Source of the DNA: a virus
Taxonomy: Duplodnaviria > Heunggongvirae > Uroviricota > Caudoviricetes
Reading direction: 5' to 3' (one strand)
IMG/VR virus record: IMGVR_UViG_2537562191_000055
Length of the DNA stretch: 37,584 bases
Shown here in pieces: positions 27,001 to 33,000 of the stretch. A program made the position numbers. Every line of letters starts with the position of its first letter. Position 1 is the first letter of the stretch.

Positions 27001-30000
27001 TGGTTTTCGTAACTGAGTCATTTTATTATTTTATTGCAACTTTTAATCTTTTATAGTGCGAAATAAATGGAGCTGGCATTCATTTCGCACTTTATGTTTT
27101 TGTTGGACTTATGTTATTTTGATTGAATTCAATTCAGTTAAAAAAAGAAGGTGATTGCTCCATTTATAAATGAATAGTCATCCCCTGTCTTGAATTCTGA
27201 TGTTACTTTATTAAATGCTAGTGTGAAGGCTACAGGTGCATACCCAATTGTTGCGCCAACTTGATATTCATCAACAGTTTTGTTTAGCGATACTGTTGTT
27301 TGTTTCGTCTGTATTGTTTTTCCTTCGAGAGTATAGTTGCGATTGACATCTCGTCTTTCCATACCTGCAAAAATCTTGTATTTGAATCCGCTTGTATCGG
27401 ACATATGCATTAAACCACGGGGAGCCAGCAGACCAAAGCCATTATCCGAATTGAAGGTTTTATCATTACCAATGGCAATGGTTGCGCCATATGCTACATA
27501 TTGAAATAAGTTTCCAGTAACAGCAGAAACTTCAGGGTATAATCCAACATTAGCACCTAAAATATCCATACTTGGTGTCATGGATAGCATCCCTTTTACA
27601 GTATAACCGTAGCGATTCTCTATTTGATCATCCCATGCATGATATTTTTCTGCCCCAATAATCTCATGAGCTTTATTTTGTACTTTCTGACCGCCTGCGT
27701 CGGGGCCAACAACACCTATGTCAGTACCTAATCGATAGCGAATCCAGTCATTCGCAAGGGAGTTCCATTCAATACCAGTGTGAGTGTATGCACTAAAAGC
27801 TCTGTCTCCAGTTACAGCTGTGTTGTGTCTTTTATTACTGCCTGATGGAGAGTAAATATCTTGCGCAATATGGAGAGATAATTGGCTCGAGTCTGAGATA
27901 TCGTGGCTATATCCCAGAAATAAGCCTTGTGAGTAATCATCTCTGTTTTCATGTTTATTGCCATAAATATCATTAAGTATTGGTTGAAACTTCCCTGCAT
28001 CATCATTTGCTAATGATAATGCAAGGCTGTTCGCGATAGCTGAACACGTGGTAAATGACAGAGCAATAAAGACGCCAGCGATGACACTTTTTTTCATATG
28101 TTATTGTCTTCCTTTTTTTTGAATGGTGCGCGTATTTTACATACATGAGTTTGTAATACAAGGTGCGTAATCAATATGATGTTTTATAATTGCGTGAGAC
28201 AATTGATTTATTCGTTTTTTATTGCGGTTTTTATTATCTTTTAATGTAACGGTGTTTTTATTAAGTGTGTTTGCGTGGTGTTTTATGTTTTTTATAATTT
28301 TTATTTTATTAAATTTAAAAGCATTAGTAATGGCTATTCTATATAGCAATATAAGAACTGTTACAAAAAAAGGGGGGGGCAATTACAGGTAGTTATGGAT
28401 GATGAGTGAAACAGATATTGGAGAACCGGGGAATGAATGATGTCTGAGTCTTATATATCAGAACTCCTTCGCTGTCGCTGGGGGCTCGTGTGCTTATGTC
28501 GTTTCCCCGATTCGGTTTTGAACGATTACCGAATGTTGAAGAATTATGCCAAAATATAGAAAGGATTTACTGCATGAATACCCAATATTTACAGTATGTT
28601 CGTGAGCAACTTATGGCAGCTACTGCTGACTTGAACGGAGCAACGAAAGGCCAGCTCGAAGCCTGGCAGGAGCATGCACAATTTGATACTGGTACATACA
28701 AACGAAAGAAGCCGCGCATTCTGGATGTGGTAACTGGCAAGATGATTACGCTGGATAATACGCCGACTTCCGGTAAGCAGTCGTACGCAAAAGGTTCATC
28801 CATTGCTTTGGTCAGCCCGGTTGAATTCTCAACCTCTTCATGGCGCCGCGCGGTTTTGTCTCTCGATGAACATCAGAAAGCATGGTTGCTTTGGTGTTAC
28901 AGCGAAAGCGTTCGATGGGGGCATCAGGTCACCATAACGCAATGGGCATGGAGCGAGTTTAAAGATTTGTTAAGTAACAGAAAAATTGCAGGTAAGACAC
29001 TGGATCGCCTGAAGACGTTAATCTGGCTGGCTGCACAGGATGTGAAGAGCGAACTTGCAGGGCGTGAGGCCTATGAATACCAGACACTGGCATCATTGGT
29101 GGGAGTGACAACAAAAAACTGGTCCGAGACATTTACTGAACGCTGGGTTGCAATGAAGCACATTTTTCTACAGCTTGATAGTGATGCTTTATTGCTTGTG
29201 ACGAGAACACGTTCAAAACAAAAGGCAGCATTTTTACAGCAAAATATTGCAAAACTGGATTAAAAGCCATATACTTCATGCAAATTTGGTATGTTGTAAA
29301 AAATGTATAAACCCGCTGCCGAGTGGGTTTTTTTTATGCCCTGAGTTGTACTTGTACGGTAAACATGCTGGCTGCTATGTAATAGAGTTTTTTTAGCCTG
29401 TAACCTCTTGACGGCATTGAATTGCTTTTGTTATGAGTTGTAAGCCAATGTTATCATCTTGTATTGGGGTGGTTATGAAGGATGGTGCGCTGCTCAGGAG
29501 TTCTTCACTTTTTATTGCCTACATGGGATGCCTTGGATGGGGGAGTGCTTATTTCTATGGATGGGGTACTTCTTTTTACTACGGCTTCCCATGGTGGATT
29601 GTAGGTGCAGGTGTTGATGATGTTGCCAGAAGTTTATTTTTTGCAGTTATCGTCATTGCTATATTTCTTATCGGTTGGGGTATTGGTGTTGTATTCTTTT
29701 TCGCAGTGAAAAGAAAACATTCTATGCAAGAGCTAAATGTATTTCGCCTTTATTTTGCTGTGGAATTATTGTTTGTGCCGGCAATTATTGAGTTTTCTAT
29801 ATTGAGACAGAAGATTCAGGTACCTCTTTTGCTACTGTCAGCAGCGATTGCGCTGGCGGTTACAATTTCGATAAGATCTTATGGGCGATTTTTATCGGTA
29901 TCATGCTTCTATGATAAGCCATTTATAAAAAAACATTTTTTTGAGATTGTGATGATTGCTTTTGTGGCATATTTTTGGATTGTGATGATTGCTTTTGTGG

Positions 30001-33000
30001 CATATTTGGCTTTCATTTTTGACAGGATATTACAAACCACAGTTTAAGAAAGAATATGAAATGATTAATTATAATGATGGTTGGTATTATGTTCTTGCTC
30101 GTTATGATAATTGTCTGGTTTTGTCTACTTCTTTCAATGCAGGTAGTAAAAGGTTTGTCATTTATCAATCAGCACAAGATAAGAATCTTCAGGTTGATAT
30201 TGTAAGGACCAGAATTTAATTGGCTGCATAAATAATATTTTAAGTTGCAAGTTGGCTATTCGTAGGAATAGAACCTTAGGCATGCTGAATGCGTTTTCTG
30301 AACATTGTTTTATAAACTGTGTCTGCTTGCTGTTGTGATCCTGCTTTTAGTGATGGTGATGATGGATTTCACCAGCAGGATAATGTTGGTACTGACTGAT
30401 GGCGCTCTGGTCTGCGGCATTGTGGTATTGCTGTGGCCGATGATGAAAGAACAGAATGAATAATTCTTGACTTTTTTGTTTACTGTTTATTAAAAAATCA
30501 ACCGCATGGTGAATCCTCCTTGGAGGGGCTAAATGATCGAGTTTTAAGGGCACGTAGCGAGTTCTGTTTGATCATTGCAGAACTTAGCGGGAGGCGCCAT
30601 GCGTACATCACTAGTGTTATTCCTTTTATCATTTTCCTTGTGAGTTCTGGCTGCGCATTGCGCAGCCTTTTTTTTATGACCTGCCACTGGCAGATGGTCA
30701 TCCTGTGATTTGATTCCGCTTCCGGCTTTTTAACTCTGTTCCTCTACACGGGAGAAATTCGATGTCGATTAAACATTACGATGTTGTCAGGGCGGCGTCG
30801 CCGTCAGACCTTGCGGAAAAGCTGACACACAAACTGAAAGAGGGCTGGCAGCCATACGGCGGACCGGTTGCCATTACGCCGTACACACTGATGCAGGCGG
30901 TGGCTATTGAAGGAGAGCCACAGGTCGGCCCTTCATCTGAGCCGGATTGGTACTACGTCATCGTACTGGCCGGGCAATCCAATGCCATGGCTTACGGTGA
31001 AGGGCTTCCGCTGCCGGATTCATACGATGCTCCGGATCCGCGCATTAAACAGCTGGCGCGCCGCAGTACAGTGACGCCGGGCGGGGCTGCCTGCAGATAT
31101 AACGATATTATTCCGGCTGACCACTGTCTGCATGATGTGCAGGATATGAGTACGCTGAATCATCCGAGGGCTGACCTGAGCAAAGGGCAGTACGGCTGTG
31201 TCGGCCAGGGTTTACATATTGCCAAAAAACTGCTCCCGTATATCCCGAATAACGCGGGGATCCTGCTGGTACCATGCTGTCGTGGTGGTTCGGCATTTAC
31301 CCAGGGCGCGGAGGGGACATTCAGCGAGTCCACGGGGGCCAGTCAGGATTCGGCACGCTGGGGGGTGGGCAAGCCGTTATATCAGGATCTGATTTCCCGC
31401 ACAAAAGCGGCATTGCAGAAAAATCCCAAAAACGTTCTGCTGGCCGTCTGCTGGATGCAGGGTGAGTTTGACATGAGCGCCGCCACCCACGTACAGCAAC
31501 CTGCGCTGTTTACAGCCATGCTGACACAGTTTCGTGCTGACCTCTCCGTGTTTAACGCGCAGTGCCATGGTGGCAGTGCTGCAGATGTGCCGTGGGTTTG
31601 TGGTGACACGACGTATTACTGGAAAAATACATACGCTACCCAGTACGACACCGTGTACGGCGGGTATAAAAACAGGGAGAGTGAGGGCGTTTATTTTGTG
31701 CCCTTCATGACAGACGGTAACGGCGTCAATACCGCCACTAACGCGCCGGCAGAAGATCCGGATATTCCGGCATCAGGATATTACGGTGCGGCATCGAGAA
31801 CGAATGGAAACCAGGTATCATCAAACCGCCCGACACATTTCAGTTCATGGGCGCGCAGGAGCATTATTCCGGATCGTCTGGCAACCGCTATTCTGAACGC
31901 AGCCGGGCGCACCTCAGCCTTCATCAGTGGTAAGGCACCGGAAATCAAACCCTCGCCCGGCGGCAACACGCCATCGGGTCCGTCTGCAGATACGTCCGTT
32001 CGCACAATCTCCCTGCTGCCGGCAGCCGGAGAGGCTGCTGCGCAGGGCTGGAGCATTAAGGATGGCGGAATTCAGTTGTCAGATGGTGTATTTAAGATCA
32101 CCAAGCAGAGCAATAAAACCTGGTCCCTGACGCATCCGGTGGATGACGCAATTACCCTGCTGACACAGGGCGGCAGACAGACCTGTAAGTTCCGCCTGTC
32201 AGGCGCACTGACCAACAATCAGTTCGGGCTGGGGATTTATCTGTATACGGATGCTCCCGTTCCTGATGGTGTGGCGATGACGGGTACCGGTAATCCGTTC
32301 CTGATGTCGTACTTCACTCAGACCACTGACGGCAGAGTGAATCTGATGCATCACAGGAAAGCCGGAAACACGAAGCTGGGGGAGTTCGGCGATTACGGTA
32401 ACGACTGGCAGACGCTGGAGCTGGTGTTCACCGCCGGCAGTGCCACGGTTACTCCGAAACTGAATGGAGTGGCTGGCCCGGCATTCCAGGTTATAAAAGA
32501 CAGTCTGACACTGGGACTGAATGCGCTGACGCTGACGGATGTTACAAAAAATGCAGCGTATGGCGTTGAGATAGAAAGTCTGATGCTGGAGATAAATGCA
32601 CCGGCAGCATAATAAAAAAAGCCAGCGACTGACCTGAAAAAGAAGACGCTGGCTAAAAGGCCTTATATGTTTGTAGAGACTTATTTTTCACAGACAGCAA
32701 TGATGCCTGTCAATATATTATCAATATGCGGATTGTTTCAGTTACAGATGCCTTATTAAGGAAAAAAACAGCCAGCACTGACTTTCGGTGGAGAGGTGCT
32801 GGCTCAAAAGGATAGATGTACTTCACATGTTGCTTCTATATGGCAGTACATTTTCTGACAGACAGTGACGGATGTTGTCAAGATATTGTGTCATTTATAA
32901 CCTGAATCAGGGGAGGCCGGAATGTTATCTGGCATTTTTAGCAGAGCCTGAATGCCATAATCACGGCTCCCGGCGTTGGCCGTCAGTGGGTGACACTGGC

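Follow-up and report, generated by a model that had tools for sequence, protein, structure and literature searches.

We report an analysis of the region between the late antiterminator gene Q and the sialate O-acetylesterase gene nanS-p in a 37,584-nucleotide stretch of Caudoviricetes DNA (IMG/VR record IMGVR_UViG_2537562191_000055), the whole of which is referred to here as the window. The window is a degraded, defective lambdoid prophage of enterohaemorrhagic Escherichia coli (EHEC) O111, adjoining ybhC, and its Q-nanS slot holds accessory (moron) cargo in the Q-to-lysis position that is occupied by stx in Stx phages (PMC8065619). This cargo is a three-part accessory cluster, already catalogued and not a new module, which consists of tfpB, a tciB-like DUF3927 gene and pasD2, the gene of a small RNA (sRNA). 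Our joint reading, to which we assign a probability of roughly 0.8, is that this is the same three-part cluster as that found in phage 434 and in prophage PP2 of enteropathogenic E. coli (EPEC) E2348/69, with tfpB inactivated here and the other two genes intact.

At 98-100% identity, the locus has annotated counterparts in phage 434 and in some 680 complete E. coli genomes out of 5,426, and an 11.6-kb segment of the window is 99.8% identical to many O111 genomes, other indels not being reported in that comparison. The 1.5-kb slot itself aligns with that of the prophage of O111:H- 11128 without difference apart from a net gain of 28 nt. The three genes CPT_434_68, CPT_434_69 and CPT_434_70 of phage 434 (OL657226) correspond to E2348C_0686, E2348C_0687 and pasD2 of prophage PP2.

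A first-pass annotation of the window had placed accessory cargo in an stx-type slot here, with a polytopic membrane protein as its main product, and this much holds. The placement between Q, with its pR'/tR'-like signals, and nanS-p is borne out by a Pfam match for Q, by the SASA esterase and by promoter and terminator scans, and the open reading frames (ORFs) listed at 29433..30047, 30064..30219 and 30353..30463 are all present. It is the genes behind these ORFs that have changed: in place of three or four separate proteins, the slot has a single gene that is broken, a gene for a micro-protein and a gene for an sRNA. The features are collected in Table 1.

Table 1. Features of the Q-nanS slot and its surroundings, in positions of the window
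Feature	Position	Strand	Basis and remarks
IS3-family (IS1203-like) insertion sequence, copy 1	22550-23760	-	ALIL frameshift pseudoknot
Lipid A 3'-O-deacylase LpxR	27138-28097	-	just upstream of ylcG/Q, opposite strand
Q late antiterminator	28574..29263	+	Pfam Phage_antiter_Q, E 1.7e-91; called Q in phage 434, E2348/69 and O111
pR'-like sigma-70 promoter, TTGCAA-17-TATACT	29247..29275	+	consensus scan; overlaps 3' end of Q, position as in lambdoid late promoters; putative function
tR'-like intrinsic terminator	29309..29338 (29309-29330 in the terminator scan)	+	terminator scan; fold -15.8 kcal/mol, z = -2.9; annotated at same place in phage 434
Disrupted tfpB-family gene (PF27470)	29475..30219	+	tblastn splits it into two frames; intact 238/247-aa orthologues
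Lesion in tfpB: 33-bp tandem duplication and T-run shortening, net +28 nt	29945..30013	+	Tandem Repeats Finder, period 33
DUF3927/TciB-like gene, 52 aa, two hydrophobic helices, TTG start	30305..30463	+	Pfam PF13064, RefSeq WP_000499454.1
Probable pasD2 promoter, TTGACT-17-TTAAAA	30467..30495	+	read from sequence, 8-9 nt upstream of mapped PasD2 5' end
PasD2-type Hfq-dependent sRNA gene (EcOnc13 in EHEC; STnc100-related), 172 nt	~30504..30675	+	mapped from Table S6, PMC8550237
pasD2 intrinsic terminator, strongest of region	30649-30667	+	terminator scan; STnc100 match ends there
NanS-p/SASA-family sialate O-acetylesterase, 3' border of slot	30762..32612	+	Pfam DUF1737, SASA, DUF6645; annotated in relatives
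PasA homologue (EcOnc51/52 in EHEC), between esterase and holin genes	~32762-32846	-	mapped from Table S6, PMC8550237
IS3-family (IS1203-like) insertion sequence, copy 2	33469-34700	+	ALIL frameshift pseudoknot; inverted relative to copy 1; cuts signal-arrest-release (SAR) endolysin gene

The disrupted tfpB gene and its protein family

The two larger ORFs of the slot (204 aa and 52 aa) are parts of one gene, which in phage 434, phage 2B8, E2348/69 and O111:H- 11128 is a single coding sequence of 744 nt (247 aa in RefSeq). Comparison of the Q-to-nanS slot across prophages, which the first-pass annotation had proposed, thus recovers the same cargo in phage 434, E2348/69 and O111, with one intact gene where the window has the two larger ORFs. 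Judged by alignments of the family and by the Shine-Dalgarno sites of all lineages, the conserved start is ATG 29475 (MKDGALL...) and not 29433, giving a protein of 238 aa. The N-terminal frame that opens there (29475..30047) encodes 190 aa, made up of 168 of the 238 native residues and a 22-aa aberrant tail, while residues 166-238, which form the C-terminal beta-domain, are encoded in a different frame at 30001..30219. The 52-aa ORF, formerly taken for a separate soluble protein, is residues 187-238 of TfpB, out of frame with the N-terminal part. What survives of the proposed 204-aa polytopic protein is its membrane character and its conserved aromatic/glycine segment, but its start was not the conserved one and its C-terminus was that of a frameshifted gene, and the annotation of the slot is corrected accordingly, from two proteins to one pseudogene.

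The lesion was resolved by tandem-repeat analysis, by alignment with four relatives and by exact reconstruction against O111:H- 11128. The duplicated 33-bp unit is GATTGTGATGATTGCTTTTGTGGCATATTTTTG, with its first copy at 29945-29977 and its second at 29978-30008; in the second copy a run of five T's has become three and the next run, of six, has also become three, so that five T's are lost. By its position in the sequence the frame shift falls inside predicted transmembrane helix 5 and cuts off the beta-domain, which inactivates tfpB in the window. One uninterrupted ORF of about 238 aa with five helices and the beta-domain is therefore absent, and the window copy is a disrupted member of the TfpB family. 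The exact 190-aa product was found in one public assembly only, E. coli 4.0522, which argues that the lesion is strain-specific. A short-query search of E. coli genomes with the duplication junction returned no match, for which low-complexity filtering is probably responsible.

The intact orthologue belongs to families that already exist, contrary to the earlier remark that no family was recognisable for any of the products; DUF3927/PHROG 1470 and the PasD2/STnc100-type sRNA, described below, account for the remainder of the slot. It is similar over its whole length to PHROG 1521, a family without an assigned function (E 1.9e-154), and each of the 104 homologues has a precomputed assignment to the Pfam family PF27470 (TfpB), one of them being identical to the product of the uninterrupted O111 gene. 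PF27470 is a newer accession whose model is not in the Pfam copy used for our scan, and in that copy, as in NCBIfam and PADLOC, the intact 247-aa protein had no match. An exhaustive profile search returned 73 representative clusters from 1.84 billion proteins, and every named member of the family comes from Enterobacterales. Between lineages the ratio of non-synonymous to synonymous substitution (dN/dS) of intact copies is 0.14-0.27, the pattern of a gene under purifying selection.

The profile and structure-prediction searches suggested by the first-pass annotation thus gave families, together with a confident model, but no solved structural relative. A first AlphaFold2 (AF2) run on 23 close homologues was poor (pLDDT 58); with 49 diverse sequences, AF2 produced a model with pLDDT 81 and pTM 0.74, in which five long helices are followed by a five-stranded C-terminal beta-domain. 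A sequence profile search of the PDB with TfpB gave only a chance antibody match, and fold comparison found no solved structural relative. As for the topology, prediction of which was likewise proposed at the outset, 10 of the 12 lysine and arginine residues in the loops lie on the N-terminal side and 2 on the other, a distribution that by the positive-inside rule would place the N-terminus of this five-helix inner-membrane protein inside and its C-terminus outside. With this topology the conserved segment GWGSAYFYGWG.SFYYGFPWW and the beta-domain would both be periplasmic.

The name TfpB appears in the records of an EPEC fragment and of an S. dysenteriae plasmid, and its origin was not traceable in the searchable literature, in which we also found no functional study of tfpB, PF27470 or DUF3927. 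An adjacency of tfpB to bfpA on the EAF plasmid was considered but not confirmed, and was dropped.

The DUF3927 gene, the small RNAs and the flanking genes

The second part of the cluster is an intact gene for a micro-protein that scores 53 bits against the DUF3927 model (cut-off 25) and matches PHROG 1470 (TciB-like) with an E-value of 2.5e-17. Its product is 42% identical to TciB of phage P1 over all 52 residues (E 6e-12). An obligate TfpB-DUF3927 pair was considered and rejected, as DUF3927 is not found beside TfpB outside 434-type prophages. Of the small hydrophobic ORFs that had been noted in this part of the slot, that at 30353..30463 lies inside the DUF3927 gene and to this extent was correctly seen, but another, a 62-aa ORF at 30520..30708, coincides with the sRNA PasD2.

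In E2348/69, PasD2 is a 172-nt plus-strand transcript of prophage PP2 that maps between E2348C_0687 and E2348C_0688 (Table S6 of PMC8550237); Northern blot and RIL-seq validate it as an Hfq-dependent sRNA, and its homologue in EHEC is EcOnc13 (PMC8550237). EPEC PasD1 and PasD2 are related to STnc100, yet too diverged to be linked to it by BLAST (bioRxiv 10.64898/2026.05.13.724894). In the window, 30474-30678 matches full-length Rfam STnc100 (RF02076; 1-206) with 41.4 bits and an E-value of 3.5e-7, which is below the gathering threshold of 47 bits, as members of the PasD branch would be expected to score. At 30636-30659, 23 of 24 bases agree with the complement of the PasD Northern probe, in keeping with the one mismatch to PasD2 noted for this probe (PMC8550237), and the probe region is accompanied by the UGUGAG seed and the terminator; compared with the published PasD2 fragment there are a few base differences. 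In more than 98% of cases PasD has Q and LpxR no further than 10 kb away, and PasD2 is typically upstream of a sialate esterase (bioRxiv 10.64898/2026.05.13.724894), the very arrangement of LpxR, Q and esterase seen in Table 1. Judged on these sequence features, the sRNA of the window is of the PasD2 type and its gene is intact.

We have accordingly rejected the 62-aa ORF as a protein. It has no match in Pfam, NCBIfam or PADLOC scans, it contains the strong terminator, and the STnc100 match, the probe and the mapped coordinates all assign this sequence to a validated sRNA. The same evidence contradicts the record of phage 434, in which the pasD2 region (CPT_434_70) is called a 'putative membrane protein', and this annotation too is corrected, to the validated sRNA PasD2. 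In relatives, RefSeq places a pseudogene for a 'hypothetical protein', with a frameshift, on the strand opposite pasD2 (~30544-30785, minus strand); it is probably an annotation artefact.

A homologue of a further sRNA, PasA, follows the esterase gene, and the PasA Northern probe matches the window at 25 of 25 bases (32771-32795), so that two sRNAs, both validated and Hfq-dependent, flank the slot. RIL-seq in EPEC recovered the segment AUGAUGUUGCC of tfpB mRNA in Hfq-bound chimeras with PasA (57 fragments, p = 0.02; PMC8550237). This segment corresponds to 29617-29627 of the window, and the finding hints that the prophage's own sRNA regulates the neighbouring tfpB. The EPEC orthologue of LpxR is a RIL-seq target of MgrR and PasD2 (PMC8550237).

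For Q, the start was taken from the 690-nt RefSeq model; a GTG at 28490 opens a longer ORF. Just before LpxR lies a truncated N-terminal piece of another Q-type antiterminator (~26923-26994, plus strand), which is annotated in relatives and points to an older Q gene whose 3' part gave way to the LpxR-ylcG-Q-tfpB block. The record of phage 434 marks the site of this fragment as the 434B crossover region. Downstream of the second IS1203-like copy come the remainder of the lysozyme gene, an integrase gene and ybhC. The tail genes before the first copy lie on the opposite strand, which suggests an inversion mediated by the insertion sequences. With its endolysin gene interrupted, the prophage of the window is incapable of lysis.

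Expression, distribution and possible role of the cluster

A transcript that starts at the pR'-like promoter would be ended by tR' as a short leader of about 55 nt. The pR'-tR' leader region (29270-29339, plus strand) resembles full-length Rfam STnc240 below threshold (28 bits, E 0.12) and may be a 6S/StxS-like terminated late-promoter transcript. Nearer to tfpB, a consensus scan placed a candidate promoter at 29428-29457.

Expression values were taken from published RNA-seq of uninduced EPEC E2348/69 in the activating condition (Table S2 of PMC8550237), given as BaseMean and not length-normalised. The intact tfpB orthologue (E2348C_0686) stands at 226, Q at 69, the DUF3927 gene at 37 and the esterase at 102, against 3.5 for the holin and about 1 for the nin genes; pasD2 reaches 11,017, and LpxR, at 2,936, is by far the top protein gene of the region (PMC8550237). 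Since polymerase modified by Q would continue into the lysis genes, the difference between tfpB and the holin argues for Q-independent basal transcription, and indicates that tfpB expression in uninduced lysogens is not purely Q-dependent, proceeding from its own promoter or by leakage through tR'. The Q-dependent late expression that had been deduced from the location of the cargo is thus not upheld for the intact orthologue.

The contexts in which tfpB occurs extend well beyond prophages. It lies directly after Q in lambdoid prophages of E. coli and Yersinia, as a fixture of the Shigella invasion plasmid in 106 plasmid records (in that of pWR501 at 135269-135985), in other E. coli on an element resembling a plasmid, and on enterotoxin plasmids of porcine enterotoxigenic E. 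coli (ETEC), where it is 59% identical and the divergent neighbour of eltAB, 867 bp from eltA (5001-5714 of L014), in an island that also holds astA and stb. A likewise fixed chromosomal copy in Salmonella (5001-5717 of L005), from a cluster of 2,681 sequences, adjoins an sseJ-like effector gene, and both this and the Shigella invasion-plasmid copy have AT-rich surroundings. The loci of Shigella, ETEC, Salmonella and Yersinia are homologous only over the ORF and at most 70 bp upstream of it, from which it follows that tfpB moves as a single-gene cassette. Phage remnants (Q, pR') were looked for beside the plasmid and Salmonella copies and none were found. Among 50,697 phage records tfpB occurs only in phages 434 and 2B8, and hence not together with stx in sequenced Stx phages. 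The databases hold various independently truncated copies and PHROGs contains fragment families, implying that tfpB often decays in prophages. The cargo is dispensable for lytic growth: phage 434B is without the whole region, yet it forms plaques and grows lytically (PMC9119081).

On these grounds we propose that the cluster would serve as lysogenic-conversion cargo, basally transcribed without Q from promoters of its own or through leakage at tR', and that after induction Q-modified polymerase reading through from pR' would transcribe it more strongly. The action of TfpB would lie on the periplasmic side of the inner membrane and would give the carrier cell an envelope-level benefit. Such an envelope activity, for example the exclusion of phage DNA or colicins or a virulence-related remodelling of the envelope, is suggested by the topology, the conserved periplasmic elements, the mobility of the cassette among virulence elements and its expression in lysogens, and we advance it only tentatively. 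We do not think that TfpB is a toxin or a lysis protein. In a bolder form, which we regard as rather unlikely, TfpB would be the founding member of a structurally unassigned class of inner-membrane proteins, carried as a single-gene cassette among virulence elements of Enterobacterales and acting periplasmically in exclusion or infection; if true, TfpB would exclude superinfecting phages or colicins in a new way, or would be an infection-related envelope factor, and the window would supply a dead copy only.

Several points weigh against this picture. The function proposed for TfpB is a speculative guess, and the label of TciB in the P1 record ('tellurite/colicin/cell-division') is given 'by homology' and by association with the TerB-like tciA, while P1 tciB is non-essential by CRISPR interference (PMC10695390). 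The tfpB promoter is a candidate only, and the upstream element is conserved with the ETEC copy alone, other upstream regions being unalignable. The RNA-seq data were obtained in another strain without correction for gene length, and possibly include multi-mapped reads from a second prophage copy. Finally, the T-run losses that make a frameshift of an in-frame duplication could be homopolymer errors of the source assembly. In that event the strain would have either the wild-type gene or an in-frame duplication of 11 codons in helix 5, the missing T's being under-calls. The lesion does split exactly into an in-frame 33-bp duplication and the contractions of the two T runs, its truncated product is known from a single assembly, and other database copies of tfpB have scattered frameshifts that are possibly sequencing errors too. 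The near-identity of the remaining 11.6-kb comparison with O111 genomes, with no further indels reported, nevertheless speaks against a generally error-prone assembly, and an in-frame version would still add 11 residues to a transmembrane helix; we judge a non-biological frameshift to be unlikely.

The alternatives concerning function and novelty fare worse. TfpB has features of an accessory to the downstream S-R-Rz lysis cassette (a holin, antiholin or lysis-timing factor), being a multi-helix membrane protein with a glycine-rich first helix, whose gene precedes that of the holin in the late operon. It is found, however, without lysis genes on the Shigella invasion plasmid, the ETEC plasmids and the Salmonella chromosome, is transcribed in uninduced lysogens and matches no holin family in Pfam or NCBIfam, and phage 434B still lyses cells in its absence, which makes this role improbable. 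The divergent arrangement with eltAB and the stx-equivalent position in phages (PMC8065619) could be taken to mean that TfpB assists the export, release or regulation of AB5 enterotoxins; but the ETEC plasmids share one conserved toxin island and so count as a single evolutionary event, with 434 and 2B8 as the only carriers among the phage records no sequenced Stx phage has tfpB, and the Shigella, Salmonella, Yersinia and 434 contexts are without an AB5 toxin, so that we consider this highly improbable. Least credible of all is the interpretation from which the study set out, that of an intact, undescribed and strictly Q-dependent late module of several small proteins with a toxin, abortive-infection or exclusion function. 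It is true that the ORFs exist, that they lie downstream of pR'/tR' and that no library scanned gave any of them a characterised function. Against this, the two larger ORFs are one frameshifted gene and the 62-aa ORF an sRNA gene, every part falls in an existing family, the near-identical locus in phage 434 and hundreds of genomes is hardly undescribed, and in uninduced lysogens the orthologue has transcripts whereas the lysis genes are silent. Nor did PADLOC match any of the three slot products: no toxin, abortive-infection or defence signature was found.

For the window itself, the identification of its cargo as an inactivated member of the 434-type cluster has little consequence, since the intact cargo, of which the window has a broken copy, is already annotated in phage 434 and in E. 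coli genomes by the hundred. More generally, lambdoid prophages other than Stx phages are shown to carry, in the slot equivalent to that of stx, a defined cluster of protein and sRNA genes with transcription in the lysogen, and TfpB stands out as a conserved, selected membrane protein without known structural relative, recurrent on virulence plasmids and prophages of enteric pathogens, which makes it a reasonable target for screening.

Relation to known systems

The intact orthologue of the window-type gene shares with PF27470/PHROG 1521 the N-terminal aromatic/glycine motif, the five helices and the C-terminal beta-domain, whereas the window copy differs from other members in that only residues 1-168 are in frame. 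Membrane proteins encoded by morons and acting in superinfection exclusion or lysogenic conversion include T4 Imm, P22 SieA, HK97 gp15 and lambda Bor and Lom. TfpB is like these in being a small membrane protein on a self-contained cassette that is expressed in the lysogen and dispensable for the lytic cycle, but it has no similarity to them in sequence, profile or fold, and fold comparison gave no match to exclusion proteins.

The DUF3927 protein has the same two-helix layout as TciB of phage P1, as seen in a comparison of 52-54 aa. The genes of P1 are ordered tciA-tciB-tciC with a TerB-like tciA, whereas the Q-nanS slot of the window is without a TerB-like gene, so that the P1 linkage is not reproduced. 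With EPEC PasD1 and PasD2, the pasD2 of the window shares its probe region, seed, terminator and length, and its synteny with Q, LpxR and the esterase. The closest parallel is the cargo of phage 434 and its equivalent in E2348/69 prophage PP2, which has the order of the window throughout (Q, terminator, 247-aa membrane protein, TciB/DUF3927, sRNA region, SASA esterase and holin) at 98-99% nucleotide identity; the cargo of the window is set apart by the 33-bp duplication and the T-run losses, which break its membrane-protein gene.

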